Origin: a virus
Lineage: Duplodnaviria > Caudoviricetes
DNA: 64,000 nt
Reading direction: 5' to 3' (one strand)
IMG/VR virus record: IMGVR_UViG_3300027759_000001
Part shown: positions 1,866-44,934 of the stretch, in pieces
Layout of the letters: each line of letters opens with the position of its first letter
Numbering within the stretch: position 1 is the stretch's first letter
The notes under the pieces: model-generated
What the model saw: only the letters and a program-made list of their open reading frames with translations
Databases searched by the model: none
What the model was told of the DNA's origin: nothing
Translations under genes and position numbers: made by a program

Positions 1866-1886
1866 TTTGTTTTTTTATTATCAAAC

Positions 1887-1893
1887 TATTTAT
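1887..1893 (+). promoter_or_regulatory. TATTTAT motif, candidate late promoter
   Basis: 5 nt upstream of ATG 1899; the same heptamer recurs before many structural genes. Confidence 0.4.
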
Positions 1894-1898
1894 GGGAT

Positions 1899-2204: not shown

Positions 2205-2216
2205 TAACATTTTTAA

Positions 2217-2223
2217 TATTTAT
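2217..2223 (+). promoter_or_regulatory. TATTTAT motif, candidate late promoter
   Basis: 12 nt upstream of ATG 2236. Confidence 0.45.
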
Positions 2224-2235
2224 AAGTAAAAGGGG

Positions 2236-8200: not shown

Positions 8201-9651
8201 GAACATCAGGAACTAACGGGACTAGCGGTACTAATGGAACTAGCGGAACAAATGGTACATCGGGAACAAATGGTACCAACGGTACATCAGGTACGAATGG
8301 TACCAATGGAACTTCAGGAACCAACGGGACAAATGGTACATCGGGGACAAATGGTACATCGGGAACAAATGGTACCAACGGTACATCAGGTACGAATGGA
8401 ACAAACGGTACAAATGGAACTTCAGGTACTAACGGAACCAATGGCACTAATGGTACAAGTGGAACAAATGGAACGAATGGTACTAATGGAACCTCAGGAA
8501 CAAATGGAACTAACGGGACTAATGGAACTTCAGGAACAAATGGAACCAATGGTACGAGCGGAACTAATGGGACGAATGGTACTTCAGGTACAAATGGTAC
8601 GAATGGTACTTCAGGTACAAATGGTACGAATGGAACAAATGGTTCAAGTGGTACTAACGGTACTAACGGTACTAACGGAACTAATGGAACGAACGGAACC
8701 TCAGGTACTAATGGAACATCGGGAACAAATGGAACAAATGGAACAAATGGAACATCAGGGACTAACGGAACGAATGGGACATCAGGAACCAATGGAACTT
8801 CTGGAACTAACGGTACGAATGGTACTAACGGAACCTCAGGTACCAACGGAACAAATGGTACTTCAGGTACGAACGGAACTAACGGAACATCAGGAACAAA
8901 CGGTACAAATGGTACAAATGGTACAAATGGTACAAACGGAACAAATGGTACTTCGGGAACAAACGGTACTTCAGGAACGAATGGTACTAACGGAACTTCA
9001 GGAACAAATGGTACCAACGGAACAAATGGTACCAACGGAACTAATGGAACCTCAGGGACTAATGGAACTAACGGAACAAATGGTACCAATGGAACCTCAG
9101 GTACTAACGGAACTAACGGAACTAACGGAACAAATGGTACGAGCGGAACTAATGGTACAAACGGAACATCAGGAACAAATGGAACATCAGGAACGAACGG
9201 TACAAGCGGATCATCACCTGTAGTACCAGGATTAGATAATGAAGTATTAACGTCAGACGGTTCGGGTAATATAGTTGCGGAAACTGATTTTACATATAAC
9301 GGTACTGATAATATATTAACACTAACAAGAAGTTACGATAAGGTTAATACTAAAACGGCAACAAATATTTCAACAACAACAACCATTGACTCATTTACAA
9401 CTAACTTTGGATGTTCGGCAATATTTGAATATTGTATAACAAGTACTAGTGGTCGTAAACGTATGGGTCAAGTATTTGCAACTTGGGACAATACAAGTGC
9501 GGTATTTACAGATATTTCATCCCCCGATTTAAATGCATCAACTGCTGCAGTAACTTGGAAAGTAAGTGTAGTATCGGGTAATGTTGAGTTAGTTGCTAAC
9601 ATTAGTGGTGCTACTTGGGACATATTAGTTGCAACAAGAATCATATTCTAA
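2236..9651 (+). CDS. Giant Gly-X-Y repeat fibre protein 1 (2471 aa): three G-T-(N/S/D) segments separated by two globular domains, with N- and C-terminal domains
   Basis: Gly at every third residue over 2395-4905, 5167-6327 and 6832-9216. Non-repetitive domains at about 4906-5157, 6328-6831 and 9217-9651. Fibre role inferred from context. Confidence 0.8.
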   Translation: MPNYQRLTDRVLAPSVSINDILHIVITGDTSQNPAGSSYKATLEQVASVIGSVGTSGTNGTDGTSGTSGVNGTSGTNGSSGANGTSGTNGTSGTSGTSGTSGTNGTNGTNGTNGTNGTSGTSGANGTSGTNGTSGANGTSGTNGTSGTNGTSGTNGTDGSSGTNGTNGTDGTNGTNGTNGTDGTDGTSGTNGSSGTNGTSGTNGSSGTNGTSGISGVNGTSGTNGTSGTNGTDGTSGTNGTDGTSGTNGTDGTSGTNGTDGTSGTNGTDGTNGTNGTDGTSGTNGTDGTNGTNGTDGTSGTNGTDGTSGTNGTDGTNGTDGTSGTNGTDGTSGTNGTDGTSGTNGTDGSSGTNGTDGTSGTNGTDGTSGTNGTDGSSGTNGTDGTSGTNGTDGTSGTNGTDGTSGTNGTSGTNGTNGTSGTNGTSGTNGTNGTNGTNGTSGTNGTSGTNGTSGTNGTNGTSGTNGTNGTSGTNGTSGTNGTSGTNGTDGTSGTNGTDGTSGTNGTDGSSGTNGTDGSSGTNGTDGTSGTNGTDGTSGTNGTDGTSGTNGTNGTDGTNGTDGTSGTNGTDGTNGTDGTSGTNGTDGTSGTNGTDGTSGTNGTNGTDGTSGTNGTDGTSGTNGTNGTDGSSGTNGTDGSSGTNGTDGSSGTNGTSGTDGTDGTSGTNGTDGTSGTNGTDGSSGTNGTDGSSGTNGTDGSSGTNGTDGSSGTNGTDGTSGTNGTNGTDGTSGTNGTDGTNGTNGTDGTNGTDGSSGTNGTDGTSGTNGTDGTSGTNGTDGTSGTNGTDGTSGTNGTDGTSGTNGTDGTNGTDGTSGTNGTDGTSGTNGTNGTNGTDGSSGTNGTDGTSGTNGTDGTNGTDGTSGTNGTDGTSGTNGTDGTSGTNGTDGTSGTSPLICTPFLSGDYYFQSVGSIYNGPSYPNMAWGPGQTLSVYAPEGVIEYMLITGYTASTGAISAVITYCSNVNYKTTSGVNLCLVGEQGTSGTNGTSGTNGTDGTNGTSGTNGTDGTNGTDGTDGTDGTSGTNGTDGTNGTDGTSGTNGTDGTNGTSGTNGTDGTSGTNGTDGSSGTNGTDGSSGTNGTNGTDGTSGTNGTDGTSGTNGTDGSNGTDGTSGTNGTDGTSGISGVNGTSGTNGTNGTSGTNGTDGTSGTNGTDGTSGTNGTDGTSGTNGTDGTSGTNGTDGSSGTNGTDGTSGTNGTNGTNGTDGSSGTNGTDGTNGTNGTDGSSGTNGTDGTNGTDGTSGTNGTDGTSGTNGTDGTNGTDGSSGTNGTDGTNGTDGTSGTNGTDGSNGTDGTSGTNGTDGTSGTNGTSGTNGTSGISGVNGTSGTNGTSGTNGTNGTNGTSGTNGTNGTSGTNGSSGTSGVNGISGGAVYFFNESVTQTPYKEFSPIPTSGSQQTVTVTIANGVTSTIQSYLTPSTYPNVSTIPAGIWSFFLHAYKENNNASFDIFCEVYSRTTGGTETLLFSTDPAPVTTNSPNPSMVLSDGFQGGFSINTTDRILVKVRATNTSNQSHTITFVTEGTTHYSYGQTTLGVINGTSGTNGTSGTNGTSGTNGTNGTSGTNGTSGTNGTNGTSGTNGTSGTNGTNGTSGTNGTSGTNGTNGTSGTNGTNGTSGTNGSSGTNGTSGTNGTSGTNGTNGTSGTNGTNGTSGTNGTSGTNGTNGTNGTSGTNGTDGTSGTNGTDGTNGTSGTNGTSGTNGTNGTNGTSGTNGTNGTNGTNGTNGTDGTSGTNGTNGTNGTNGTSGTNGTSGTNGTNGTNGTSGTNGTNGTSGTNGTSGTNGTNGTSGTNGTNGTSGTNGTSGTNGTNGTSGTNGTNGTSGTNGTNGTSGTNGTSGTNGTSGVSGASGTSGTNGTNGTNGTSGTNGTNGTSGTNGTNGTSGTNGTNGTSGTNGTNGTNGTSGTNGTSGTNGTSGTNGTNGTNGTSGTNGTNGSSGTNGTSGTNGTNGTSGTNGTNGTSGTNGTNGTNGTSGTNGTNGTSGTNGTNGTSGTNGTNGTSGTNGTSGTNGTSGTNGTSGTNGTNGTSGTNGTNGTSGTNGTNGTSGTNGTSGTNGTNGTSGTNGTNGTNGTSGTNGTNGTNGTSGTNGTNGTNGTSGTNGTNGTNGTSGTNGTNGTSGTNGTNGTSGTNGTNGTSGTNGTNGTNGSSGTNGTNGTNGTNGTNGTSGTNGTSGTNGTNGTNGTSGTNGTNGTSGTNGTSGTNGTNGTNGTSGTNGTNGTSGTNGTNGTSGTNGTNGTNGTNGTNGTNGTSGTNGTSGTNGTNGTSGTNGTNGTNGTNGTNGTSGTNGTNGTNGTNGTSGTNGTNGTNGTNGTSGTNGTNGTSGTNGTSGTNGTSGSSPVVPGLDNEVLTSDGSGNIVAETDFTYNGTDNILTLTRSYDKVNTKTATNISTTTTIDSFTTNFGCSAIFEYCITSTSGRKRMGQVFATWDNTSAVFTDISSPDLNASTAAVTWKVSVVSGNVELVANISGATWDILVATRIIF
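2395..9216 (+). repeat. 9-nt-period coding repeat (Gly-Thr-Asn/Ser/Asp) in three blocks of 279, 129 and 265 triplets
   Basis: Block lengths of 2511, 1161 and 2385 nt are exact multiples of 9; synonymous codons are scrambled between units. Confidence 0.9.
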
Positions 9652-9704
9652 AATCAATCTTTCATTTAATTTTTCTTTTTAGATAATAAAGTTTACTTAA
9701 CTAA

Positions 9705-9711
9705 TATTTAT
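9705..9711 (+). promoter_or_regulatory. TATTTAT motif, candidate late promoter
   Basis: 56 nt upstream of ATG 9768. Confidence 0.35.
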
Positions 9712-9767
9712 TTAATAACAAATAAATCAAAGGATTTTCTTTTGGATAGGGAAAAAAGAAAAAATAG

Positions 9768-12700
9768 ATGGCAAATGAATTCATAGCCCGTAATGGGGTC
9801 AAATCATTAGGTGGTGTTACATTTCCATATACTGGAGTGAGCACCACATACACAATTAATTCGGATAATTATCTAATTGATTGTACTAGCGGGACATTTA
9901 ATGTCACCCTTCCAACTTCTGCAGGTATTGCAGGACAAATCTTTGTAATTAAAAATAGTGGATCAGGAACAATAACTCTTGCAACAACAGGAGGTCAAAC
10001 TATAGATGGAAGTTCAACAAAAACATTAACACAATATGGATCAATAACCGTACAAAGTGACGGTTCAAATTGGGATATTGCGGGATCTGACGGAACGTCA
10101 GGAACTAACGGCACTAGCGGAACATCAGGAACAAATGGTACCAACGGTACTAATGGAACATCAGGTACAAATGGAACTAACGGTTCAAGTGGAACTAACG
10201 GTACAAATGGGACATCGGGAACCAATGGAACTAACGGTACAAACGGTACTTCAGGAACAAATGGTACAAATGGAACAAACGGAACGTCAGGTACAAACGG
10301 TACTAGCGGAACGAATGGTACTAACGGAACAAATGGTACGAGTGGAACTAACGGAACTAATGGTACATCAGGTACAAATGGTACTTCAGGAACTAATGGG
10401 ACTAACGGAACTTCAGGAACTAATGGTACTTCAGGAACTAACGGTACGAATGGAACTAATGGGACTTCAGGTACGAATGGTACTAATGGAACATCAGGGA
10501 CTAACGGAACAAATGGAACTTCAGGTACTAATGGAACTAATGGTACTAATGGAACTTCAGGTACTAATGGAACTAATGGTACTAATGGAACGTCGGGTAC
10601 TAATGGAACCAACGGAACATCGGGAACCAATGGGACTAACGGTACAAATGGAACATCAGGTACAAATGGAACATCAGGTACAAATGGAACTAACGGATCT
10701 TCAGGAACCAATGGAACTAATGGTACAAACGGAACTAGCGGTACGAATGGAACTTCAGGAACAAATGGAACATCAGGAACTAACGGCACAAATGGTACTA
10801 ATGGATCATCAGGAACTAATGGAACGTCAGGAACAAATGGAACCAACGGTACAAATGGTACTTCAGGAACTAACGGAACAAATGGTACAAATGGAACTTC
10901 AGGGACTAACGGAACTTCAGGAACTAATGGTACCAACGGAACATCGGGTACTAATGGAACTAATGGTACTAACGGAACAAATGGAACATCGGGTACTAAC
11001 GGGACTAATGGTACAAACGGAACTTCAGGAACTAACGGAACAAATGGTACGAGTGGGACCAATGGAACTAACGGTACTTCAGGAACTAACGGAACAAATG
11101 GTACGAGTGGGACCAATGGAACAAATGGTACTTCAGGAACTAATGGTACGAGCGGGACTAATGGAACAAATGGAACATCAGGTACTAACGGTACAAACGG
11201 TACTTCAGGAACGAATGGAACTTCAGGTACTAATGGAACTAATGGTACAAACGGAACATCAGGAACCAACGGTACAAATGGTACCAACGGAACTAGCGGA
11301 ACAAATGGAACTAACGGAACTAACGGAACATCAGGTACTAATGGAACTAATGGAACATCAGGAACAAATGGTACCAACGGAACTAGCGGAACAAATGGGT
11401 CTTCAGGTACGAATGGTACCAACGGAACTAGCGGTACAAATGGAACAAATGGAACTAACGGTACAAATGGCACGAGTGGGACCAATGGAACAAACGGTAC
11501 TTCAGGTACAAATGGAACTAATGGTACAAATGGAACAAATGGTACGAGCGGGACTAATGGAACTTCAGGTACAAACGGAACATCAGGAACGAATGGAACT
11601 AATGGAACTAATGGAACTTCAGGTACAAACGGAACCTCAGGAACGAATGGAACTAATGGAACTTCAGGTACTAACGGAACCTCAGGAACAAATGGTACGA
11701 ATGGATCATCAGGTACAAACGGAACGAATGGAACATCAGGAACAAATGGTACCAACGGAACTAGCGGAACAAACGGTACTTCAGGAACAAACGGTACTTC
11801 AGGAACGAATGGTACCAACGGAACTAGCGGTACTAATGGAACAAGCGGCACAAATGGAACGAATGGTACAAATGGAACCAACGGAACATCAGGTACCAAC
11901 GGAACTAATGGTACAAACGGAACTAGCGGACTTTCTGGTGTTGATGGTACTGATGGAACATCAGGAACAAACGGAACTAGCGGAACTAATGGTACCTCAG
12001 GAACAAGAGGAACTAGCGGAACAAATGGTACAAATGGTACCAACGGAACTAGCGGAACAAATGGTACCAACGGAACAAATGGTACTAATGGAACTTCGGG
12101 AACAAATGGCACAAATGGTACTTCAGGAACAAATGGTACTAACGGAACCTCAGGTACTAATGGGACTTCAGGAACTAATGGAACAAATGGCACATCAGGA
12201 ACAAATGGTACTAACGGAACTTCAGGTACAAATGGAACATCTGGGACAAACGGTACAAATGGTACTAACGGAACATCAGGAACGAATGGTACAAATGGAA
12301 CTTCAGGAACGAATGGTACAAACGGAACTAATGGAACAAATGGAACGAATGGAACCTCAGGTACGAATGGTACTTCAGGAACGAATGGAACTAACGGTAC
12401 TAATGGAACTAGCGGTACAAATGGTACGAACGGAACTAGCGGTACAAATGGTACTTCGGGAACAAATGGAACAAACGGAACTTCAGGTACAAATGGTACT
12501 AACGGAACTTCAGGTACAAATGGAACATCTGGGACAAACGGTACAAATGGTACTAACGGAACATCAGGAACAAATGGTACAAATGGAACTTCAGGAACGA
12601 ATGGTACAAACGGAACTAGCGGGACTAATGGAACTTCAGGAACGAATGGTACAAACGGAACTAATGGAACAAATGGAACGAATGGAACCTCAGGTACTAA

Positions 12701-15700
12701 CGGAACGAACGGAACATCAGGAACTAATGGAACCAATGGTACAAATGGAACAAATGGCTCAAGTGGTACAAACGGAACTTCAGGTACTAACGGAACATCG
12801 GGTACAAACGGAACTAACGGCACTTCAGGTACTAATGGAACTAGCGGTACTAACGGAACAAATGGAACTTCAGGAACAAATGGTACTAACGGAACGAATG
12901 GTACGAGCGGGACCAATGGTACATCAGGGACAAACGGAACGAATGGAACTAATGGCACTAGCGGTACAAATGGAACAAATGGTACTAACGGGACAAATGG
13001 TTCAAGTGGAACTAATGGAACTTCGGGCACTAACGGAACAAACGGTACTAGCGGAACGAATGGTACTAGCGGAACGAATGGAACAAATGGAACGTCAGGA
13101 ACTAATGGTACGAACGGAACAAATGGTACATCAGGTACTAATGGAACTAGCGGAACGAATGGTACAAATGGAACTAGCGGTACCAACGGGACTAATGGTA
13201 CAAACGGAACTTCAGGTACCAACGGAACTAATGGTACTAGCGGAACTAATGGTACTAACGGAACATCGGGAACGAATGGGACAAATGGAACTTCAGGTAC
13301 AAACGGAACATCAGGGACTAATGGAACAAATGGAACTAGCGGTACGAATGGAACCAATGGTACAAATGGTACTTCAGGAACTAATGGTACTAATGGAACG
13401 AACGGAACCAATGGTACGTCAGGGACAAATGGAACTTCAGGCACAAACGGGACTAACGGATCATCAGGGACCAATGGAACGAATGGTACAAGCGGTACTA
13501 ACGGAACTAGTGGGACAAACGGAACAAATGGTTCAAGTGGTACCAACGGTACTAATGGTACTAGCGGTACGAATGGAACTAGCGGTACAAACGGAACATC
13601 GGGAACGAATGGTACTAACGGTACAAATGGTACTTCAGGGACAAACGGAACAAATGGTACTAGTGGAACTAATGGAACCAACGGTACTAGCGGAACAAAC
13701 GGAACTAGCGGAACAAACGGAACCTCAGGAACAAATGGAACAAATGGTACTAGCGGAACTAATGGAACGTCAGGAACTAACGGAACAAATGGTTCAAGTG
13801 GAACCAACGGTACGAATGGTACTTCAGGTACAAATGGAACTAGCGGCACAAATGGAACTAACGGAACTAGCGGTACTAATGGTACTTCAGGAACAAATGG
13901 CACAAACGGAACTAATGGAACAAATGGTTCAAGTGGTACCAACGGTACAAATGGAACATCCGGAACTAATGGTACTTCAGGGACAAACGGAACAAACGGT
14001 ACGAATGGTACTAACGGAACAAGTGGAACTAACGGAACAAGTGGGACGAATGGTACTAATGGAACATCAGGAACCAACGGAACTTCTGGAACTAATGGAA
14101 CAAATGGTACTAGTGGAACTAACGGTACTAATGGTTCAAGTGGAACGAATGGTACTAATGGAACTTCAGGTACTAACGGTACTAATGGAACATCAGGAAC
14201 AAACGGAACTTCGGGAACCAATGGAACAAACGGTACATCAGGTACTAACGGAACAAGTGGGACGAATGGTACTAATGGAACTAGCGGAACGAATGGAACA
14301 TCAGGTACGAATGGTACAAACGGAACTTCGGGTACAAACGGAACATCGGGTACGAATGGAACGTCAGGAACGAACGGAACCAATGGCACATCGGGAACTA
14401 ATGGTACTAATGGTACATCAGGGACGAATGGAACAAATGGTACTAACGGAACTAGCGGAACAAACGGAACTAGCGGAACGAATGGTACGAACGGATCTTC
14501 AGGCACTAATGGTACATCGGGGACAAATGGAACCAACGGTACAAATGGAACTAATGGAACCAACGGGACTTCAGGCACAAATGGGACTAGCGGAACGAAT
14601 GGAACTAACGGAACGTCAGGTACAAATGGAACAAACGGAACTAATGGTACTAACGGTACAAGTGGTACAAATGGAACCTCAGGTACAAATGGAACAAACG
14701 GAACTAATGGTACTAACGGTACAAGTGGTACAAATGGGACTTCAGGTACAAACGGTACGAATGGTACTAACGGAACATCAGGTACAAACGGTACTAATGG
14801 TACTAGCGGTACGAATGGAACTAACGGCACATCAGGGACTAACGGAACTTCAGGTACGAATGGAACAAATGGTACGAGCGGGACCAATGGAACTAACGGA
14901 ACTTCAGGTACGAATGGAACATCAGGAACTAACGGAACTAGCGGAACGAATGGTACAAATGGAACTAGCGGAACAAATGGAACATCAGGTACAAATGGTA
15001 CCTCAGGAACAAGAGGAACTAGCGGAACAAATGGTACAAACGGAACCAATGGTACGAGCGGAACAAATGGAACTAATGGAACATCAGGAACTAACGGAAC
15101 ATCCGGTACGAATGGAACAAATGGTTCAAGCGGAACTAACGGAACTAACGGATCATCAGGTACAAACGGAACTTCGGGAACCAATGGTACAAACGGTACA
15201 TCAGGAACTAATGGAACTTCAGGTACAAATGGAACTAACGGTACTAATGGTACGTCAGGTACAAATGGAACCAATGGTACATCAGGTACTAACGGAACTT
15301 CAGGTACTAATGGAACTAATGGTACTAATGGAACAAACGGTACTTCAGGAACAAATGGAACGAATGGTACTAACGGAACTAGTGGAACAAATGGTACTAA
15401 CGGAACAAACGGTACGAATGGGACTTCAGGAACTAACGGCACAAGCGGGACAAATGGTACTAACGGTACAAGCGGGACAAATGGAACGTCAGGAACTAAT
15501 GGTACGAACGGAACAAATGGTACATCAGGTACTAATGGAACTAGCGGAACGAATGGTACAAATGGATCTTCAGGAACAAATGGAACAAATGGATCTTCAG
15601 GAACAAATGGAACAAATGGAACAAATGGATCTTCAGGAACAAATGGAACAAATGGATCTTCAGGTACGAACGGCACATCAGGAACTAATGGTACAAATGG

Positions 15701-16700
15701 TACTTCAGGAACAAATGGTACTTCAGGAACAAATGGTACGAGCGGGACCAATGGAACAAATGGAACCAATGGAACCAATGGAACATCAGGTACTAATGGC
15801 ACTTCAGGTACCAACGGTACAAATGGTACCAACGGAACTAGCGGCACAAATGGTACTAATGGATCATCAGGTACTAACGGAACTTCAGGGACAAATGGCA
15901 CTAACGGAACATCAGGAACCAACGGTACAAATGGAACTTCAGGTACAAATGGCACTAATGGTACTAGCGGAACAAACGGTACAAATGGATCATCAGGTAC
16001 GAATGGAACTTCAGGTGTTAGTGGAGCGTCAGGTACTTCAGGTACTAATGGTACAAATGGATCATCAGGAACTAACGGAACATCGGGTACTAATGGAACA
16101 GGATTTAATTCAATATCACCAACAACAGATAATAATGTGTTAACTGCTAATGGAACCGCAAATTCAGCGAACTCAGAACCAAACTTAACATTCAATGCTT
16201 CAACAAACTTATTAACAGTAACGGGTAATGAAACTGTTAGTGGTATTTTAACTAGTCAATCTTCGGGATCATTAGTTGCAAATGGTAAATGGTCTTTAAT
16301 GGGTAACCCTACAACTTTGTTAACCTCAAATAGTTATTATGGTGAAGTCGTAACATTTGGGGGGGCAGGTGCAACCACCCAATTTTATATGTATTATTGG
16401 TCTAGTGGAAGTACGTGGGAACTTACTGACGCCAACGCGGCGGCAACATCAAGGGGGTTAATATCAATGGCAATAGATACTAGTTTCAGTGGAGGGATGA
16501 TGTTAAGAGGATATGTATATAATTCAACATGGAACTGGACACCAGGAGCAACATTATATTTAAGTGCCTCTGGCGCTGCCGGGGTTATAACATCAACACA
16601 ACCTTCAGGTAGTGCGGATATTGTAAGAGTTGTTGGATATGCCATTAGTGCCGATTTAATTTACTTTAATCCTTCGCAAGATTGGATTGAGTTAGCATAA
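9768..16700 (+). CDS. Giant Gly-X-Y repeat fibre protein 2 (2310 aa): tail-fibre-type N-terminal domain, one uninterrupted G-T-(N/S) segment, DUF2190/cement-like C-terminal domain
   Basis: N-terminus [10 protein letters not shown]...TLP...IKNSG...IDG...SDGSNW is typical of phage fibre proteins. Repeat spans 10083-16094. C-terminus ...GATLYLS...[27 protein letters not shown]. Confidence 0.8.
10083..16094 (+). repeat. 9-nt-period coding repeat, 668 Gly-X-Y triplets (mostly GTN, GTS, GSS)
   Basis: 6012 nt equals 668 x 9; no globular interruption in the translation. Confidence 0.9.
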
Positions 16701-16711
16701 TACTTATAGTA

Positions 16712-17551
16712 ATGGCAATAATAACTAAATTAAATGACGTTTTATGTGTTAACATTTCAAAAATTGATAATGTTTTAAAAAGTAATGCGAAATTTTTTGA
16801 TGATAATACTTTTTGCCCAACACCAACACCTACACCAACAACTCCAGTTGGGACACCAACACCAACACCTACAAGAACATTAACTCCAACACCAACATTA
16901 ACAAGAACATTAACTCCAACACCAACAAATACACCTACATTAACTCAGACATTAACTCCAACACCAACAAATACACCTACATTAACTCAGACATTAACTC
17001 CAACTCCAACAAATACACCAACATTAACTCAGACATTAACTCCAACTCCAACAAATACACCAACATTAACAAGAACATTAACTCCAACTCCAACAAATAC
17101 ACCTACATTAACAAGAACATTAACACCAACGCCAACAAATACTCCTACATTAACAAGAACATTAACTCCAACACCAACAAATACTCCTACATTATCACAA
17201 ACATTAACTCCAACTCCAACAAATACGCCAACACCAACACAAAGATTAAGTTCAACGCCAACACCAACACCAACTCCAACTCTAACACCAACTACACCAT
17301 GTGGTAAAGATTGTTGTTATATAGAACTTTGTTATAGTACAATTGACTGTACGGACGCTTGTCAATGTAATCAAACTGTTAATGTATACCTATCTATTTG
17401 TAAATATACCGCATGTAGATTATCAAACGCATTTGGAATATTTGTAGATGACTCATGTACAACACCTGCGGCAGATGGTTACTATTCTAATACTGTTGAT
17501 TGTTATTATTGGGATGGGTCTTCCTCTTTAACATATCAAGGTCCTTGTTAA
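16712..17551 (+). CDS. Mucin-like protein: short N-terminal domain, Thr/Pro repeat, 12-Cys C-terminal domain
   Basis: Translation shows about 8 copies of TPTLT(R/Q)TLTPTPTN followed by a Cys-rich end. Confidence 0.75.
16817..17299 (+). repeat. 42-nt tandem repeat encoding a 14-aa Thr/Pro unit (about 8 copies plus degenerate flanks)
   Basis: Unit close to acacctacattaactcagacattaactccaacaccaacaaat. Confidence 0.85.
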
Positions 17552-22250: not shown

Positions 22251-23222
22251 ATGCCAATACCAAATGTTATAAAATACTCTACAACTCCTGACTCAAAATC
22301 TTTAAAGGTTGGTAATTTTTCTTTGGGTGTGTCTGATAGTGCTTACGGGGATACTAATTCAACAGGATATTGGAATGGATATGACATTCAATCCAATAAA
22401 CTAGTTATTTATCAAAATAAAGCATTAAATGGTCCATCAATTAGAGTTTTTGATATAGCATCTTTTGATTTCCTTGATTGGGTAAATAATACATTCAATC
22501 AAAATTTCACAATTGGTGAAATTGAATTAACATATGTTTATATCAATAGTTTAGGATCCACAATACTTGTTGATAAAAGTTATCCTGTAATATCTACAAG
22601 TGGTTTGACATTACATTTAGATGCTGGATTTATGCCATCATATCCACAATCAGGATCAACATGGACCGATTTAAGTTTTAGTGGTAATAATTCTACTTTG
22701 TTTAATAGTCCAGTTTGGGCTTCAACTTTTGGTGGTGGTTTTATTTTTGATGGAACTAATGATTATGGTACTGCCGGTTCAGGTTTAGCCATTACCGGTA
22801 ACCTTACGGTAGCCGCTTGGGTTAGACCAACTACATCATTTGCAAATCAAGGTAATATTATGGCTAAAAGTGGTAATCAAGGATATAGAATGAGATTCCA
22901 AACTGATGGTACTTTTTGGATGTCTGCCAATGGAAATACAATCACATCACCATCTGCATATACAGTAAATAATTGGTTTTATACTGTGGGGGTATTTTCT
23001 TCTTCAGGTTTACGAATGTATATAAATGGTAGTTTAGTACAATCAAATGGTACCGCATTTTCACCGTCCTACGATGCAGGTAATTTTTTTATTGCGGGAC
23101 TTACGTCAACTCAAGAACTTTTTCGTGGTAGAATCGCGACTCTGAGTGTATACAATAGGTCTTTAGATGCGACTGAAATATTGAATAACTATAATAATCA
23201 AAAATCAAGATTCGGATTATAA
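22251..23222 (+). CDS. Adaptor domain C (divergent) plus LamG/ConA-like lectin domain
   Basis: GLTLHLDAG...SYP.SG.TW.DLS, FDGTNDY, TVAAWVRP, MYINGSL, GRIATLSVYNRSL..TEI..NYN..KSRFGL. Confidence 0.75.
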   Translation: MPIPNVIKYSTTPDSKSLKVGNFSLGVSDSAYGDTNSTGYWNGYDIQSNKLVIYQNKALNGPSIRVFDIASFDFLDWVNNTFNQNFTIGEIELTYVYINSLGSTILVDKSYPVISTSGLTLHLDAGFMPSYPQSGSTWTDLSFSGNNSTLFNSPVWASTFGGGFIFDGTNDYGTAGSGLAITGNLTVAAWVRPTTSFANQGNIMAKSGNQGYRMRFQTDGTFWMSANGNTITSPSAYTVNNWFYTVGVFSSSGLRMYINGSLVQSNGTAFSPSYDAGNFFIAGLTSTQELFRGRIATLSVYNRSLDATEILNNYNNQKSRFGL

Positions 23223-23234
23223 CTATTTATATAT

Positions 23235-23501
23235 ATGGAAACACAATTACAAGAATACAAAAACAGAAAATTTATAATCTTTAATGTCTCAGAATTGAAT
23301 CAGATTGATTTCACTCAGGTATTAGAAACATCAATTGATACTGTTAGAAAATCTGTTGATCAAACAAAAACATTTGTTAAATGGGATGGGGTAACTCCAG
23401 AGTGTGTAAATAATTTAACAACAAAAGAAGGACCTTACACTTATGATGAGATTATTCCAATTTTATTGACAACAGAATGGACGGATCAAAGTGAAATATA
23501 A
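23235..23501 (+). CDS. Conserved small phage protein often found next to LamG genes
   Basis: IDFTQVLETS.DTVRKS.D.TKTFVKW.G...YTYDEI..IL...EWT pattern, recognised from memory only. Confidence 0.55.
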   Translation: METQLQEYKNRKFIIFNVSELNQIDFTQVLETSIDTVRKSVDQTKTFVKWDGVTPECVNNLTTKEGPYTYDEIIPILLTTEWTDQSEI

Positions 23502-23541
23502 TTTATCTTTATTTTAATATTTCATATTTTATATTTAACAT

Positions 23542-24468
23542 ATGAAAAAAGTATGTTTAGATGTATTAGGATGTAGAGCGTTAGGTGATACTTTAGCAGT
23601 AACACCAACTTTAAGAAAACTTTATAATTCTTACGGTAAAAAAATATCTGTTGCGACTCATCACCCTTATCTATTTTTAGATAACCCATATGTTGATAAC
23701 ATCTATACCGATGTAACCGATGAAATAAAAGAAACTCACGAAGTATTCGTATCGTTTAATATTGGTTATCATCCAAATGGTATTTGTTATAAACATAACG
23801 CAATGGACATTAGACAATTCCATGCGATTAATCTTGGTTTTATGTTATCCAAAGATGAGATGGAAATGGATTACATTCCAAAACCAATTGACACAATAGA
23901 AGGTTTACCTGAAAAATATGTTTTAATTCATCCCGTGCAAAATTGGGACTCAAGAACTTGGGATGCAAAGAAATGGCAAATGTTAACCAAACTATTAAAC
24001 GAAAGAGGTATTGCCGTTGTGTCTATTGGTAAAGATTCGTCTGAACTTGGTGGATCTAATGTGGATAAACCTGTATTCAATTTCAAAATTGATTTAGGAT
24101 TAAACTTAATGAATAATACAGATATGGATCAGGCTTGGTACCTCATCCAAAATAGTATGTGTTTTATTACAATGGATTCAGGACTATTACATTTGGCGGG
24201 AACAACCGACGCAGAGATAATTCAATTAGGTAGTTCAATTAATCCTGAGTTTAGATCACCATATAGAAAAGGTTCACAAGAATATAAATATCATTACGTG
24301 GTTGGTGGTTGTGGTTTGAATTGCGCTTCCGACATGAGGTATGGTGTTAGAGAATGGCAATCAATACAAGGTATACCATCACTAGTTAATTGTTTGGAAA
24401 GAAAAGAAACCTTTGAGTGTCACCCAACAATTTTTGCGGTTTATAATAAAGTGTTAGAAATAGTTTAG
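23542..24468 (+). CDS. GT9-like (ADP-heptose transferase fold) glycosyltransferase
   Basis: LGDTLAVTP, YVLIHP...SRTW...W, FITMDSGLLHLAG, C-terminal Cys cluster. Confidence 0.75.
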   Translation: MKKVCLDVLGCRALGDTLAVTPTLRKLYNSYGKKISVATHHPYLFLDNPYVDNIYTDVTDEIKETHEVFVSFNIGYHPNGICYKHNAMDIRQFHAINLGFMLSKDEMEMDYIPKPIDTIEGLPEKYVLIHPVQNWDSRTWDAKKWQMLTKLLNERGIAVVSIGKDSSELGGSNVDKPVFNFKIDLGLNLMNNTDMDQAWYLIQNSMCFITMDSGLLHLAGTTDAEIIQLGSSINPEFRSPYRKGSQEYKYHYVVGGCGLNCASDMRYGVREWQSIQGIPSLVNCLERKETFECHPTIFAVYNKVLEIV

Positions 24469-24497
24469 TTAATGATATTTATTGTTAAACAACAATA

Positions 24498-26066
24498 ATG
24501 GCAACAACAAGACCTTTTTCGTATAATACAGGATCACCAATCTCAGGAACAATTCAGGTTGGTAATTTAGCCGTTGGTTACCCAACAACAGGATTTACAG
24601 GGATGGAATGGTGGAACGGACCTGATGAGGATTTAGGTTATGTGATTGCACAACCCGTTTCAGGAGATACCCAACCAACACCTATAACAATAAATGAAAT
24701 TTTTTTAAGTTCAACTTACAGGGGTACTGATATTATCCTAAGTAATAATAATCAAACCGCATATCAACAATTTGGGTATCAACAATCTGTTTTGGGAACC
24801 AACCCAATTGGTTCTACGGATAAAGTAATGTTTAGTATTTTATGTACCTTGGCAACACCACCAGCATTACCAAACAGTCACTTTGTTGGTATTGGATATA
24901 CTTCAATGAATTATCAAGGAAATCCTTATGGTGGTTACCCCGGTAATGATGGTAATAGTATGGGATATGGTAGCGATGGAAATATTTGGTATAACGGAAG
25001 CATATATTTAGGTGGTCTTCAAACTTGGGGTGATGGTGACATAATTGATATTATTATCAATAATAATGTTAATACATTGTGGGTTAGAGTTAATGGTGGT
25101 AATTGGAATAATAGTCTTTCGGATAACCCTGAAACAAATGCGGGAGGACTTGAAATTATAGGAGACCCATTTTATCCTGTGTTATGTCCAGGATATGAAG
25201 GTACAATGATAGTACAAAATTCACCAACATATAATGTTCCAAATGGATATACATTTTTAGGGTTAACATCTGCATCTGTTGGTTTTTTTAGAACAAATGG
25301 TTTTGATGATAATGAATTTATTAATATTACAAATACCCTTTTAAATTCAAATTATACTGCAACAACCGATGCTTCAACAGGGTTAACAATAAATGGATAT
25401 TGGAATTCATATACTGTAAATGGTGGGAATGGTTTAACCCCCGAAACTGCAGGAGATAACGCTCTTCAAATAAAAACGGATTATTCCGGATCAACTGATG
25501 GTTTATATTGGATTAAAAATAATAATATAAGTGGTGGAACACCATTCCAAATATATGCTGATATGACAACAGATGGTGGTGGTTGGACATTATTGGTTAC
25601 AAACCAAAACACCGATGGATGGACATATGAAAACTCTATATTATTAAATGAATTTAACCCTGTTTCAGGTGGTTCAAACTATTCAATAGTTGCTTACGCT
25701 GATTATTTAAAAAGTTCAGGTGCGACATTCCAATATATGATAGACGCTTACCAAAGAAATCAATTTGGTGGTATATGGTCAGCCCCACAATTTTATTCAT
25801 TTGTTTATACTGCTAATACACAAACATTTGTGACTATTAACACTAAATTTGGTACTTGGAATTATAATGATGGTAGTATTGAACAATATATGCCTTGGCG
25901 TAGTACTAGTAGTGGTTTATTAACCACATCATCCAATCCTGGTGGTGAATGGTGGGGAACTTTAATCACTAATGGTGGTTGGAACCCCGCACCTTGGATT
26001 AGTGGTGATTGTGGTTTAGATGGATGTATGCCTAATCCAGGAATTATATGGTATTGGGTAAGATAA
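24498..26066 (+). CDS. Adaptor domain C interrupted by a SPRY/B30.2-like domain, followed by a fibrinogen-related C-terminal domain
   Basis: N-terminus WWNGPDEDLGYVI. SPRY-like FVGIG...G.DGNS.GY.SDG...GD.IDI...LW.R.NGG.W. Fibrinogen-like IYADMTTDGGGWTLL. Confidence 0.7.
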   Translation: MATTRPFSYNTGSPISGTIQVGNLAVGYPTTGFTGMEWWNGPDEDLGYVIAQPVSGDTQPTPITINEIFLSSTYRGTDIILSNNNQTAYQQFGYQQSVLGTNPIGSTDKVMFSILCTLATPPALPNSHFVGIGYTSMNYQGNPYGGYPGNDGNSMGYGSDGNIWYNGSIYLGGLQTWGDGDIIDIIINNNVNTLWVRVNGGNWNNSLSDNPETNAGGLEIIGDPFYPVLCPGYEGTMIVQNSPTYNVPNGYTFLGLTSASVGFFRTNGFDDNEFINITNTLLNSNYTATTDASTGLTINGYWNSYTVNGGNGLTPETAGDNALQIKTDYSGSTDGLYWIKNNNISGGTPFQIYADMTTDGGGWTLLVTNQNTDGWTYENSILLNEFNPVSGGSNYSIVAYADYLKSSGATFQYMIDAYQRNQFGGIWSAPQFYSFVYTANTQTFVTINTKFGTWNYNDGSIEQYMPWRSTSSGLLTTSSNPGGEWWGTLITNGGWNPAPWISGDCGLDGCMPNPGIIWYWVR

Positions 26067-26083
26067 AATATAATTAAATTAGT

Positions 26084-27181
26084 ATGGCAACTGCAAGACC
26101 TTTCGCATATAACACAGGTTCAACCATAACAGGAACAATACAAATTGGTTCATTGGCCGTTGGTACGCCAACATCGGGATTTACTGGAAACCCTAGATGG
26201 TGGAATGGACCTGATGAAGATTTAGGGTATGTTATTTGTAGACCAAATACTAATGGAAATCAACCAAATCCTGATAATGTACCGGCTTATATCAGATTCT
26301 CAAGGTCAAAATTAAAAACAGACCAATCATTTATTAACTTAGTTAATTCTGTATTTAAACAAACATTTACAACGACCAGTGAGTGTACATCGTATTTAAC
26401 GACAAATGGGTATTGGACTTCTTATGTTTCTCCCCCAACACCAACACCAACATTAACTAATACGCCGACATTAACACCAACTCAAACACCAACATTAACT
26501 CAGACATTAACACCAACTAATACGCCAACATTAACAAGAACATTAACACCAACTCCAACTAATACACCAACACCTACAAACATTAATTCACAAGGATTTA
26601 GTTATTCTAACTTTGCGTCAACTGGAGGCACTGTTTCTGTTGGTAACGTATCACTTTCATCAAACATTCTTTTTTTAACAACTGCGGCTAATGGTCAGGT
26701 TGGTAATGTTTATAGAACAACCGCAATTCAATTTAATAGAAATTTCTCGGCTCAATGGTCAACATTTATCGGAGGAGGTACAGGTGCCGATGGATACTGT
26801 ATTCAATGGACACCAACTAATAACACTAACGGGACTGCAGGTGGTGGTGTAGGATACGTTAGTTCCGCAATAAACGCAATTACATTCTTAACATATTCAA
26901 ATAACAATTATACTTGGTATAAAAATAATGTTTCACAAGGTTCAACGAGTGTTACCCCAGGACTTTGGAGACAAACATTATATTTCTGGGGTGACTATAA
27001 TCATTCGGCACAAACATTTGCACTTTATTGGAGCACAACAAATAGTAAACCTGGTTCGGCAAATAAAACATTTACTAGTTTCTCATTTGACACAAGTTCT
27101 TATTACATGGGATTTGGTGCGGCAACGGGAGGAGCAAATGATAACCATCAATTACTTTCTTGGGTTTTAACATTCACATAA
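26084..27181 (+). CDS. Adaptor domain C + Pro/Thr linker + L-type (legume-like) lectin domain
   Basis: N-terminus near-identical to 24498. LTTAANGQVG, GADG, YMGFGAATGG..DNHQLLSW. Confidence 0.75.
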   Translation: MATARPFAYNTGSTITGTIQIGSLAVGTPTSGFTGNPRWWNGPDEDLGYVICRPNTNGNQPNPDNVPAYIRFSRSKLKTDQSFINLVNSVFKQTFTTTSECTSYLTTNGYWTSYVSPPTPTPTLTNTPTLTPTQTPTLTQTLTPTNTPTLTRTLTPTPTNTPTPTNINSQGFSYSNFASTGGTVSVGNVSLSSNILFLTTAANGQVGNVYRTTAIQFNRNFSAQWSTFIGGGTGADGYCIQWTPTNNTNGTAGGGVGYVSSAINAITFLTYSNNNYTWYKNNVSQGSTSVTPGLWRQTLYFWGDYNHSAQTFALYWSTTNSKPGSANKTFTSFSFDTSSYYMGFGAATGGANDNHQLLSWVLTFT

Positions 27182-29564: not shown

Positions 29565-30812
29565 ATGAGAATATTTGTACAAATTGCATCTTACAGAGAT
29601 CCCCAATTAATCCCAACAATTAAAGATATGTTGGAAAAATCAAAAAAACCAAAAAACATTAGACTTGGTATCGCAAGACAATTTCACCCTGAAGACGGTT
29701 TTGACGATCTTTCAGAATATGAAAATGACAACAGATTTAGAATTTTAAATATACCTTACACCGATTCAACAGGAGTTTGTTGGGCAAGAAACTTGACACA
29801 ACAATTATATGAAGGTGAAGAATATACATTACAATTAGATTCTCACATGAGATTTGAACAGGATTGGGATGACACCTTAATCAAAATGATTAAACAATTA
29901 CAAAAGAAAGGATATAAGAAACCTTTGTTGACGGGATATGTTTCTTCATTTGATCCTGATAATGATCCACAAGGGAGAGTTAAAGAGCCATGGAGAATGG
30001 CATTTGACAGATTCACACCTGAAGGTTGTGTTTTCTTTTTACCTGAAACAATACCAGGTTGGGACAAATTAAAGTCTCCAATCCCCTCAAGATTTTATTC
30101 GGCACATTTCTGTTTTACTTTAGGTCAATTTTCAACTGAAGTACAACATGATCCTGAGTTTTATTTTCACGGAGAAGAAATTTCAATTGCGGTAAGAGCA
30201 TATACTCACGGATATGATTTATTCCACCCACATAAAACGGTTATTTGGCATGAGTATACTCGTAAGGGTAGAACAAAACAATGGGATGATGATAAAGAAT
30301 GGGGTAAACGAAATGAAAGATGTCATCAAAAGAATAGACAATTATTAGGTGTTGATGGTGAAGTTCCCGATAGTGATTTTGGGATCTATGGTTTAGGAAC
30401 TGAAAGAACAATACAAGATTATGAAAAATATTCTGGTCTATTATTTTCAAAAAGAGCGGTACAACAACACACATTAGATAAACAATACCCACCAAACCCT
30501 TACACATATAGTTCTGAAGAAGAATGGAAAGAATCTTTCTCTTCAATATTTAAACATTGTATTGATGTTAATTATGGTAGCGTACCTGAAACAGATTATG
30601 ATTTTTGGGTGGTAGCATTCCATAATGCAAAAGATGAAACGTTATATAGATTAGATGCTGGAATCGATGAGATTAATAGAATGAAAAATGATCCTGATGG
30701 TTATTGTAAAGTATGGAGAGAATTTAATGCTACGGATAAACCAACCTATTGGGTTGTATGGCCTCACTCTGTATCAAAAGGGTGGTGTGATAGATTAACA
30801 GGTAATTTATAA
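29565..30812 (+). CDS. GT60-like polypeptide alpha-GlcNAc transferase (GlcNAc/PF11397-like)
   Basis: IFVQIASYRD...TI, G.CWAR...Q.LY.GE.Y.LQLDSHMRF...WD, F.SAHF.F, FHGEE, ..RAYTHGYD...P...V.WH.Y.R. Confidence 0.75.
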   Translation: MRIFVQIASYRDPQLIPTIKDMLEKSKKPKNIRLGIARQFHPEDGFDDLSEYENDNRFRILNIPYTDSTGVCWARNLTQQLYEGEEYTLQLDSHMRFEQDWDDTLIKMIKQLQKKGYKKPLLTGYVSSFDPDNDPQGRVKEPWRMAFDRFTPEGCVFFLPETIPGWDKLKSPIPSRFYSAHFCFTLGQFSTEVQHDPEFYFHGEEISIAVRAYTHGYDLFHPHKTVIWHEYTRKGRTKQWDDDKEWGKRNERCHQKNRQLLGVDGEVPDSDFGIYGLGTERTIQDYEKYSGLLFSKRAVQQHTLDKQYPPNPYTYSSEEEWKESFSSIFKHCIDVNYGSVPETDYDFWVVAFHNAKDETLYRLDAGIDEINRMKNDPDGYCKVWREFNATDKPTYWVVWPHSVSKGWCDRLTGNL

Positions 30813-38346: not shown

Positions 38347-39438
38347 ATGATACAAGGAATAAGAATTACAAGTCAAAATTTATCGGGGGATACCGCTAAT
38401 GTTACTTTTAACCCACAAACGGGTGGTACAATTAATTTAGGTACACAAACAATACCTTTTAATAATATCACAAATTATCCTTATGGTACTTATGAATTAT
38501 TTGTACCTGAATTTAATTACACATATGATGTAATTGTCCCAGCCCCGCAAAATGGTCAGGATGCATATACGACAACAGTTAGAGACGTTACAATAGATGG
38601 TGGATTAAAACCATTCTCAGGAGCGGTATTATCTGAAGTATGGGGGACATATACAACTGATTATATTACAAATCAAGGAATACCATCAACATCTATTGTT
38701 TTAGCTGAAGGTATTTGTTCTGATGATGTTGACGCATCAAAAGTACCATCAAATATTGGTCAATGGCCAAATAGTATTAATTCGTTTTTAGGTCCATTTA
38801 TGTCAGGTGGATTAGCGGGATATCCATTTGTGGGTAGTGTTGGTTTTGGGGCATTTGCAAGTCACGTAGCAACAAGTGGTGCTACCGAAACAAATGCCAC
38901 TTTATTTGTTACGAGTATGCCACATATTGGTGTGACTGAAGATGGTCGTTCAGGAAGAATGTTACGTAGAGGTAAAGCTGATAGTATAACAGATAATACT
39001 TGTGGTGCAGTTTGGGGAGCAATTAACCAAGTTGTAAATGTTTTATCAGCACCTCCAAGTCAAAGTAATCCACCATTTGATAATGGTAATTATTCTTTTT
39101 GGAAGTTAACAGATATTTTATGGCCATTTAAAAACGTATTATCAGGATTTACAGGAACTAGTGAGGAAATATATAATAAACAAATGATTTTTGCGACAGA
39201 AACAATTAGAGATGCCGCATATGATTATATTATTGATGTTTTACCAAGTCAAGTGACGGGTAACACACAAAACGATGTATATTTTTTAAGTGGTATTTTT
39301 ATCAATACTGATGTTATTCCTGACAGTACATTACAATTTGAATCTTATGTTGTTGTTGATAAAGTTATGAAATATGAATTTGGTATTGGTTGGAGTGATA
39401 TTACCATTAGTTATAACACTGGATTACCAATTGACTAA
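38347..39438 (+). CDS. Adaptor domain A fused to an LCIB/LCIC-type beta-carbonic anhydrase domain
   Basis: ICSDD, F.SGGLAGYPF.G..GFGAF.SHV, PHIGV...G..G...RRG, TCGA. The Cys/His/Cys zinc ligands are all present. Confidence 0.7.
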   Translation: MIQGIRITSQNLSGDTANVTFNPQTGGTINLGTQTIPFNNITNYPYGTYELFVPEFNYTYDVIVPAPQNGQDAYTTTVRDVTIDGGLKPFSGAVLSEVWGTYTTDYITNQGIPSTSIVLAEGICSDDVDASKVPSNIGQWPNSINSFLGPFMSGGLAGYPFVGSVGFGAFASHVATSGATETNATLFVTSMPHIGVTEDGRSGRMLRRGKADSITDNTCGAVWGAINQVVNVLSAPPSQSNPPFDNGNYSFWKLTDILWPFKNVLSGFTGTSEEIYNKQMIFATETIRDAAYDYIIDVLPSQVTGNTQNDVYFLSGIFINTDVIPDSTLQFESYVVVDKVMKYEFGIGWSDITISYNTGLPID

Positions 39439-43845: not shown

Positions 43846-44934
43846 TTATTTTGTTCTTAACAAATATAATTCGTTAACAAATTCCCAATTAACGTGATTC
43901 CAAAAATTATTTATATATTCGTCACGTTTATTACGATATTTTAGATAGTATGCGTGTTCCCACACATCAAGTCCTAATAGTGGATACCCACCATCTTTGA
44001 CTACATTCATTAATGGATTATCTTGATTAGATGTGGAAATAATTTTTAATCTATTATTTTTAGTTAAAATTAACCAAGCCCACCCTGATCCAAATCTATC
44101 TTTAGCAACCTGATTAAATTCATCTTTTAATTTTTTAATATTTCCGTATTGTTTTGTAATTTTTTCAAATACTTCACCACTTGGTTTTTGTTTGGTTGGA
44201 CTTAACATTTTCCAAAATAAAGCGTGATTAAAGGCACCACCAGCATTATTTCTAACTTTAGTATCATACTTACTAATATTTTTGATTATGTCTTCTAATT
44301 CAACATCACCTTTTTTATTTGATAACGCATCATTTAATTTCTTAACATAACCTTTATAATGTTTGTTGTAATGGATATCCATAGTTTCAGGATCTACAAA
44401 TTGTTTCATTGATGAATATGAATATGGTAATTTTTCAATACCAATTTTTTTCATTTCCATTATAAAATCTTTTTTGATATTTTGTTTTTCTGAAATTAAA
44501 ATTTGTTCATTAATAAGATTAATTTTATTGTTAATCCCTTTAAACCCTTCAAAAACATATTCATTAAATTGTGGGTATTCTTCTTCAAACATTTTAATTA
44601 GTCGGCCACCATATGCATTTGCTTCATCTTCATTCTGACCACCAATGTTTGGACCTTGTTCTCTTTTAAGAACATTTATTTGGTAAGCATGAACCCACTC
44701 ATGAGCTAATGTTCTCATTATATCACGATTTAATCTACCATCAGTTAATACTTTAATTCCATTTTTTGGGTGTTGACTACCTGTAGACATTCCACCTATT
44801 TTTTTACCCACAAATTGAATAGTGATATCCTCCTTTAATTGATAATTCTTTTGTAAGAATTTAATAAAGGTGTGAATTAACTCGTTATACTTTGAATCAA
44901 GTCCTGAATTTATACGTTTGATGCTTACTTTCAT
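43846..44934 (-). CDS. sodA: HExxH metallopeptidase-like domain fused to Mn/Fe superoxide dismutase (Mn-type signature)
   Basis: LPY.Y....., H..KH..Y, NAGG..NH, FGSGWAWL, NQDNP, DVWEHAYY; N-terminal LAHEWVH...EDEANA. Confidence 0.85.
   Translation of the reverse strand: MKVSIKRINSGLDSKYNELIHTFIKFLQKNYQLKEDITIQFVGKKIGGMSTGSQHPKNGIKVLTDGRLNRDIMRTLAHEWVHAYQINVLKREQGPNIGGQNEDEANAYGGRLIKMFEEEYPQFNEYVFEGFKGINNKINLINEQILISEKQNIKKDFIMEMKKIGIEKLPYSYSSMKQFVDPETMDIHYNKHYKGYVKKLNDALSNKKGDVELEDIIKNISKYDTKVRNNAGGAFNHALFWKMLSPTKQKPSGEVFEKITKQYGNIKKLKDEFNQVAKDRFGSGWAWLILTKNNRLKIISTSNQDNPLMNVVKDGGYPLLGLDVWEHAYYLKYRNKRDEYINNFWNHVNWEFVNELYLLRTK

Follow-up and report, generated by a model that had tools for sequence, protein, structure and literature searches.

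What joins three neighbouring phage proteins whose C-terminal parts resemble different binding folds, and what would a shared N-terminal domain do for the phage that encodes them? This question is raised by the genes of P0003, P0001 and P0002, located at 22251-27181 of a 64,000-nucleotide stretch of the tailed-virus record IMGVR_UViG_3300027759_000001 (Caudoviricetes; the whole stretch is called the window in the following). The source phage is uncultured and of freshwater origin and features a low content of guanine and cytosine as well as a genome of ~292 kb, of which the window represents a part. As judged from sequence comparison with its relatives, modular exchange of C-terminal heads on a constant N-terminal domain, here termed the adaptor, is demonstrated for this group of proteins. 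The open reading frames (ORFs) of all three were confirmed, and their parts are given below with the underlying evidence in brackets (aa, amino acids).

22251-23222, + strand: P0003 gene
22251..22580, +: N-terminal domain of P0003 (aa 1 to ~110), divergent member of the adaptor superfamily (hhalign; jackhmmer bridging; neighbourhood)
22584..23222, +: head of P0003, LamG_3, concanavalin-like (PF13385)
24498-26066, +: P0001 gene
24498..24689, +: first half of the P0001 adaptor, aa 1-64 (identity to P0002; 92% to the unsplit orthologue L013:606-1601)
24690..25268, +: SPRY-like insert of P0001, aa 65-257, ~193 residues (missing from the L013 orthologue; Pfam SPRY; insert profile match)
25269..25415, +: second half of the P0001 adaptor, aa 258-306 (identity to P0002 67-114)
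25416..26066, +: putative head of P0001, fibrinogen-related/intelectin-like (PF00147; phmmer against the PDB)
26084-27181, +: P0002 gene
26084..26428, +: unsplit adaptor of P0002, aa 1-115 (query of the family search; 91-95% nucleotide identity to relatives stops at 26429-26432)
26429..26608, +: Thr/Pro-X mucin-like stalk of P0002, aa 116-175 (direct reading of the sequence)
26609..27181, +: putative head of P0002, L-type (legume/ERGIC-53-like) lectin (PF18483, PF03388; PDB matches)

The N-terminal domain of P0001, P0002 and P0003

The common N-terminus of P0001 and P0002, proposed in the initial annotation, is confirmed by 54% identity over 93 aligned residues (E 7e-25). The motif expected in its second half, F.R...D..FIN..N...LT.NGYW.SY, is likewise present, with 38% identity over the 48 residues aligned between P0001 258-305 and P0002 67-114 (E 8e-12), and the two halves of P0001 yield, once joined, a single match of 114 bits to P0002. 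Both proteins are members of a family defined by an N-terminal domain of ~116 residues with the motifs RPFxYN, G-T-x-Q-x-G, WNGPDE-LGY and NGYW-SY. An AlphaFold model of this adaptor, computed from 110 diverse sequences (predicted local distance difference test, pLDDT, 84; predicted template modelling score, pTM, 0.75), features six strands followed by two helices.

The SPRY-like domain of P0001 had been described as sitting inside the adaptor, and this claim holds. Decisive for a true insertion is the existence of a natural variant free of it, since the P0001 orthologue L013:606-1601 of an 88-kb relative features two residues in place of the 193, while being 92% identical to P0001 over residues 1-64 and 80% over residues 258-522. 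In the AlphaFold model of the adaptor, the insertion site corresponds to a loop at residues 55-69. In addition, the BFVD model of a relative from an uncultured phage (A0A6J5SUH7, named B30.2/SPRY protein) superposes on the adaptor over 311 alignment columns with a template modelling (TM) score of 0.86, which indicates that the halves of the adaptor come together around the insert in that model. The single-sequence AlphaFold model of full-length P0001 (pLDDT 31) was unusable for the split protein and for the heads, and a complex prediction with three adaptor copies (score 0.00) was uninformative on oligomerisation in either direction. Besides, a joint of 24686 to 25374 on a lake-metagenome contig suggests a variant without the SPRY insert; with flanks of 22-35 nucleotides (nt) it counts as unconfirmed.

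The N-terminus of P0003 shows no similarity to the adaptor by BLAST or phmmer. A profile-profile comparison was carried out with hhalign after the start of the LamG domain had been trimmed off the P0003 family (residues 1-108 retained), and aligned this family with the adaptor over 96 columns end to end (P 5.9e-5, probability 65%). Likewise, a jackhmmer search with P0002 1-116 alone reached P0003-type proteins via intermediates (L078, 3e-28; L071, 2e-26; L051_8744, 5.9e-12), but did not retrieve P0003 itself at E 1e-3. P0003-type genes are furthermore located immediately upstream of adaptor genes at 20 of 77 related loci. On the basis of the profile-profile alignment, the bridging and this position, P0003 is accepted as a true, distantly related homologue; the divergent adaptor that the initial annotation had recognized in this protein was thus rightly called, and homology of the N-termini comprises all three proteins. 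Among 50 relatives of the P0003 N-terminal domain, all except one carry a PF13385 LamG domain. P0003-type genes feature a small companion:

23235..23501, +: ORF of 88 aa without known family, companion of P0003-type genes (conserved neighbourhood)

Its seven homologues, from 3 lineages, are without exception located directly 3' of a P0003-type gene, in some cases with overlapping stop and start codons, and neither Pfam nor PHROG gave a match. The small protein may act as a partner or assembly factor.

Searching metagenomes with the adaptor profile revealed 995 clusters at 50% identity (827 of them with E 1e-10 or better), and the best 150 matches start, with one exception, at residue 1-7, the proteins measuring 144-958 aa. 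Adaptor identity across clusters amounts to 48-69% and conservation lies far above that of the heads; strong conservation applies to the motif W40-N-G-P-D-E-D-L-G-Y with its invariant residues W40, G42, E45 and G48. The domain occurs on 293 viral contigs and was detected in prokaryotes only on three short contigs of metagenome-assembled genomes (185,579 species' genomes searched). Tandem arrays of 2-5 family members are observed. The family is restricted to phages. All five large adaptor contigs that were tested (190-321 kb, one of them complete) contain a T4-type Gp23 capsid gene, and the host of these T4-type jumbo phages is probably to be sought among freshwater Bacteroidota. In the ESM Atlas, the adaptor model matched, by shape as well as by features, only its own uncultured relatives.

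Heads, stalks and their exchange

The terminal domains were assigned with different confidence. The LamG_3 head of P0003 is a secure prediction, with PF13385 (Laminin_G_3) matching residues 167-310 at model positions 1-150 of 151 (E 1.3e-23; 84.2 bits compared to a cut-off of 27.6). In P0001, the Fibrinogen_C match (PF00147; E 1.5e-4) is marginal with 22.1 bits at a cut-off of 22 and comprises model positions 14-51 only. A phmmer search of the PDB with this head retrieved intelectin-1 (1.4e-4), XEEL (4.5e-4), FIBCD1 (2e-3) and the fibrinogen-related domain of tenascin, with E values up to 8e-3, and the matches are limited to the first ~45 residues of a fibrinogen-type domain of ~220 residues. 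The SPRY match of the P0001 insert (PF00622; E 9.5e-4) remains with 19.7 bits under the cut-off of 26.3; it recurs in relatives, among them the homologous insert of P0288, which exceeds the cut-off with 26.6 bits, and a profile of nine inserts matches the SPRY structures of RanBP9/10 (E 4e-4). The P0002 head is regarded as L-type-lectin-like with moderate support, as it matches PF18483 (E 5.5e-7; 30.1 bits, cut-off 78.3) and PF03388 (E 3.9e-4; 20.3 bits, cut-off 24), both below threshold, and in the PDB a legume lectin (E 1.8e-3) and ERGIC-53 (0.03); its relative P0121 features a precomputed PF18483 match. The statement of the initial annotation that all heads belong to recognition folds is therefore firm for the LamG_3 domain of P0003, whereas the SPRY, fibrinogen-like and L-type lectin assignments depend on weak matches.

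Between adaptor and head, a run of at least six Thr/Ser-X dipeptides follows the adaptor in 78 of 150 family representatives. Such Thr-X stalks are probably O-glycosylated.

The initial annotation had further suggested that one adaptor carries many heads and that these should be catalogued by means of an adaptor profile. Within the 995 clusters, the catalogue of 127 representatives comprises at least 12 Pfam head families, with about two thirds of the heads lacking any family: LamG_3 (24), Toxin_R_bind_N, SPRY, DUF285, Gly_rich_2, L-type lectin, Sialidase-N, Fibrinogen_C, Fib_succ_major, DUF5122 propeller, F5/8-C and LamG_2. No Pfam family covers the adaptor itself in these representatives. 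Clustering of the heads by BLAST resulted in at least 44 components, a lower bound because one large component is fused via low-complexity stalks.

The exchange is evident among close relatives. Adaptors 89-98% identical to that of P0002 carry four unrelated heads, namely LamG_3 (proteins of 341-346 aa), PA14 plus GLEYA (281 aa), L-type lectin, and a head of unknown type that ends in helical structure (367 aa), and protein identity among them collapses at residue ~116. The same border is found in the DNA. The relatives L005 and L011 contain a single adaptor-PA14 gene in the slot behind the glycosyltransferase family 9 (GT9) gene, and their 91% nucleotide identity to the window stops at 26429. 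Compared to the LamG-bearing relative L088, the window shows 94.6% identity over 26084-26432, none across the heads and 84.7% from 27219 onwards, a point that corresponds to 45 nt before the stop codon of the L088 LamG gene. As the homology resumes inside the end of that gene, a stranded piece of LamG sequence is recognized behind the lectin gene of P0002:

27216..27263, +: stranded LamG 3' end, 15-16 codons plus stop, without start codon (frame 3; DNA homology to L088)

Its translation, SNVLSNYNATKSKFGL followed by the stop, is 80% identical to the C-terminus of the adaptor-LamG protein P0012, and by this homology the piece is a fossil of a head replacement. The alignments taken together show that heads were swapped between closely related phages by recombination with the breakpoint at the border of N-terminal domain and head. 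Such recombination at the border means that strains differ in what the protein binds, with the N-terminal part remaining constant. The idea of one adaptor for many heads is thus sustained by the catalogue, by near-identical adaptors on unrelated heads, by DNA breakpoints and by the LamG fossil.

Two further contig joints from lake metagenomes (X5, X7) connect 23216 to 26084 and 25408 to 26437; the variants would lack the 88-aa ORF, the GT9 gene and P0001, or feature the P0001 adaptor fused to the P0002 stalk, respectively. Due to their short flanks (22-35 nt) they are unconfirmed and were not counted as support. In L088, a tandem pair of proteins (8507-10171 and 10238-11899) shares a different N-terminal domain, followed by a TPTPT linker and Fib_succ_major heads, and by its layout appears to follow the same logic of anchor, stalk and head with another putative anchor.

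The adaptor as a putative virion anchor

The explanation that is favoured here, and that is held to be somewhat likelier right than wrong as a whole, regards P0001, P0002 and P0003 as members of a large, recombination-driven phage family built from anchor, stalk and head. The anchor would be the ~116-residue alpha/beta domain that begins with the first residue and is often followed by a Thr-X mucin-like stalk. The terminal position is taken by LamG, PA14/GLEYA, L-type lectin, fibrinogen/intelectin-like, F5/8-C, beta-propeller or BspA-type repeat heads as well as by many heads without family, and an additional binding domain, SPRY, can be accommodated in a surface loop of the anchor. Docking would take place on a conserved part of the particle of T4-type jumbo phages, i.e., capsid, tail or collagen-like fibre, and the displayed, exchangeable glycan-binding heads would modulate adsorption to hosts or other surfaces.

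For the central element of this explanation, the attachment of the protein to the particle by the adaptor, we infer a slightly better than even chance. The arguments are the position at residue 1, the conservation, the stalk, heads of extracellular type without a secretion signal, the fact that P0003-type proteins lack the acidic motif, and the literature on jumbo phages, in which LamG3 and SPRY domains are linked to tail fibres and further parts of the virion (PMC7824862). No signal peptide or hydrophobic N-terminus is present, and typical extracellular binding heads without signal peptide would leave the cell only on the particle or at lysis. Further points listed for an anchor are the T4-type Gp23 gene in the five large contigs, collagen fibre genes nearby, a portal-adjacent adaptor gene and the upstream motif TATTTATW.

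The conserved WNGPDEDLGY motif could also be explained by an N-terminal domain that is itself a working carbohydrate-binding or enzymatic module, with the variable C-termini merely targeting it to glycans and the protein possibly being free after lysis. The invariance of W40, G42, E45 and G48 fits such a function, and so does the fact that a structural partner of the adaptor was not found. Moreover, the layout of domain, PT linker and domain resembles secreted glycoside hydrolases, where PT-linked binding modules target cellulases. Nevertheless, the homologous P0003-type proteins have not kept the cluster of D and E residues, which speaks against a catalytic site common to both branches; similarity to the fold of an enzyme or binding module is missing (best VIA-align Z 3.0), as is a signal peptide, and the strict start at residue 1 is more typical of the attachment domains of phage fibres and spikes. 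We consider this alternative unlikely. The shared N-terminus might otherwise be a cleavable or transient tag for targeting or assembly, e.g., for loading into the capsid, instead of a permanent anchor. This is highly improbable, since the adaptor is a folded domain of 116 residues (pLDDT 84) and not a leader of 10-20 residues, tolerates a domain inserted in its loop and refolds in the models, and since lectin heads on stalks make little sense within a capsid.

An evaluation of the anchor reading has to include the genes around the adaptor genes. The structural genes of the window comprise:

2236-9651 and 9768-16700: two giant collagen-repeat ORFs, upstream of P0003/P0001/P0002
49053-52394: tail sheath, 1113 aa
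54000-54764: T4-type baseplate protein

A multi-transferase of 1219 residues is likewise encoded upstream of the three genes, and P0002 is followed downstream by a Thr-X protein of 721 residues and, at 29565-30812, by a GT60-like transferase (PF11397). The interleaving with glycan-making genes, which the initial annotation had taken as functionally complementary, holds for this phage and three other lineages and does not extend to the rest: homologues of the window's transferases occur within 10 kb of an adaptor gene in 4 of 21 lineages and at 29 of 77 loci. Each of the five large contigs features a GT60-like gene, whose distance to the adaptor gene can exceed 100 kb, and collagen-repeat fibre genes are found within 10 kb at 33 of the 77 adaptor loci.

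This neighbourhood bears on a further alternative, according to which the proteins are non-structural, intracellular lectin helpers of phage glycosylation that bind glycosylated collagen-like or Thr-X fibre proteins during assembly, in the manner of ERGIC-53 and calnexin, or host envelope precursors. Besides the GT9, GT60-like, GT2 and methyltransferase genes with which the adaptor genes are interleaved in the four lineages, and the consistent GT60-like gene of the large contigs, the ERGIC-53-like nature of one head would suit this role. Yet a linkage restricted to so few lineages, with a GT60-like gene that may be >100 kb off, speaks against it, and fast exchange of heads among near-identical phages fits host-facing binders, not chaperones of the phage's own conserved glycans. 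In addition, the Thr-X stalks suggest that the adaptor proteins are themselves substrates. Such helpers are accordingly judged quite improbable. A more speculative version of particle attachment, to which similarly little credence is given, would make the adaptor a lectin-like docking domain for the phage's own sugar-coated collagen-like megafibres or Thr-X stalks, products of the co-encoded transferases. The result would be a glycan-mediated, exchangeable "bottle-brush" coat, and recombination at the domain border would act as a population-level cassette system that re-tunes adhesion and leaves the virion core untouched.

Regulation was considered by means of the motif TATTTATW, which occurs on the coding strand in 13 of 38 upstream stretches of 60 nt, compared to about 2 expected from composition, and lies 19-22 nt before the ATG of eight genes. 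The genes concerned include P0003, P0001, the first megafibre, the Thr-X protein and two genes after the baseplate gene (54936, 56953), with motif positions at, e.g., 2217, 22230, 24476, 27316, 54915 and 56934. The motif corresponds to the T4 late -10 box read in reverse complement; it is a candidate promoter element of the phage and gives a weak hint of co-regulation of adaptor genes with structural genes.

Several findings weigh against an anchor on the particle. The SPRY, fibrinogen-like and L-type lectin heads were assigned by weak matches, as described above. The neighbours of adaptor genes vary across the 21 lineages and mostly feature annotation without function (PHROG mostly blank for large neighbours). 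TATTTATW may lack specificity for structural genes, because the motif is also found before the carbonic-anhydrase-like gene. Among deposited phage records, PHROGs and the PDB, no cultured phage, proteome or structure was found to contain the adaptor, and no docking partner was identified. In detail, the adaptor is unmatched in 50,697 deposited phage records (megablast; tblastn sensitivity), no PHROG family corresponds to it (110 adaptor sequences), PDB sequences searched with a profile yielded nothing better than E 0.83, and a similar solved fold was retrieved neither by Foldseek from the PDB (best E 2.9) nor by VIA-align from 48,161 chains (best Z 3.0).

A number of observations concern the phage and its window in general. 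Genes identical to those of the window occur on contigs from lake metagenomes that reach 291,788 bp, and the window also encodes a family B DNA polymerase. The sheath-family match of the tail sheath is limited to the last ~290 residues, with the first ~820 being additional. On a small contig (L070), an adaptor gene (341-1204) is located directly upstream of a portal gene (1253-3157; phrog_213, E 1e-60). Contigs from lake metatranscriptomes (X19, X20) match the window at 24400-24599, 25311-25542 and 25582-25784 without difference; since RNA libraries can contain DNA, transcription of P0001 in nature is only weakly indicated, and stretches of the locus without such contigs are uninformative. At 16712-17551, a protein of 279 aa is composed of a 35-residue N-terminus, a Thr-X/Pro stalk of ~160 residues and a Cys-rich C-terminal domain, and its numerous "homologues" match through the stalk only. 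Immediately upstream of the first collagen megafibre lies an ORF of 101 aa (1899-2204), whose family is present in five lineages, where it either stands alone next to genes for collagen fibres or adaptors or forms the N-terminal part of Thr-X stalk proteins, and which may represent a second carrier domain of the same kind as the adaptor. Furthermore, 38347-39438 and 43846-44934 (- strand) encode a homologue of LCIB-type beta-carbonic anhydrase (PF18599, E 1.7e-27) and an Fe/Mn superoxide dismutase, the latter with an N-terminal extension of ~160 residues.

Related systems and implications for jumbo phages

The closest conceptual counterparts are mosaic tail fibres and tailspikes, e.g., the fibre mosaics of P2, Mu and lambda and the tailspike adaptors of K1-5 and CBA120, in which an N-terminal attachment domain is combined with an exchangeable, receptor-binding C-terminal part. 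The adaptor proteins share with these the constant N-terminus and variable C-terminus, breakpoints at the domain border and the occurrence of several paralogues of different specificity per genome. In contrast, nothing in them points to a trimeric fibre, beta-helix or coiled coil; their heads are small, lectin-type and of a kind that is usually monomeric, and are carried on a Thr-X mucin-like stalk, and neither in sequence nor in fold does the adaptor match a known attachment domain.

Hoc of T4 and pb10 of T5 combine a capsid-binding domain, which is C-terminal in Hoc, with outward Ig-like domains and are dispensable, variable accessories. The likeness consists in a small binding domain by which adhesion domains would be exposed on a T4-type particle. 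The differences are the Ig-like domains in place of exchangeable lectin heads, and the C-terminal binding domain of Hoc as opposed to the N-terminal adaptor. Hoc and pb10 were not among the PDB matches of the adaptor (best Foldseek E 2.9, VIA-align Z 3.0), an absence that does not exclude kinship. The targets of diversity-generating retroelements, i.e., Mtd-type C-type lectin tips varied by mutagenic retrohoming, likewise present a varied ligand-binding tip on a constant base, whereas the adaptor heads vary by replacement of whole domains via recombination.

Virions of lactococcal and streptococcal siphophages are decorated by carbohydrate-binding modules, and their "evolved" Dit and Tal proteins contain loop-inserted modules (PMC7533335). 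Plugging in accessory glycan-binding domains, including a whole domain in a loop of the scaffold, is common to both systems. Unlike these known baseplate proteins of small siphophages with Gram-positive hosts, the adaptor is an undescribed stand-alone domain of T4-type jumbo phages. With regard to jumbo phages, a survey (Iyer et al., 2021; PMC7824862) noted that lectin domains of the LamG3, SPRY and discoidin types occur on tail fibres and further virion components. It covers the same head families in the same kind of phage, and differs in that it lists the heads without a shared N-terminal carrier, loop insertion or cassette exchange.

The adaptor system thus follows the logic of mosaic fibres and tailspikes and of siphophage binding modules; in the literature searched, no description was found of the carrier domain, of its mucin-like stalk, of the nested insertion or of the breadth of heads. 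The analysis defines a large, phage-only domain family (about 1,000 clusters) that is missing from Pfam and PHROGs and unmatched by any solved structure. A further result is an unusually clean natural record of domain shuffling, comprising near-identical carriers with unrelated heads, exact breakpoints, a head fossil, and variants with and without the nested domain. With a hidden Markov model of the adaptor, glycan-binding heads carried by phages could be catalogued directly in virome surveys. Should the carrier be a virion anchor, it would offer a ready-made scaffold for the display of binding domains on phage particles, and the family would have a major part in determining the adsorption or host range of abundant freshwater jumbo phages.

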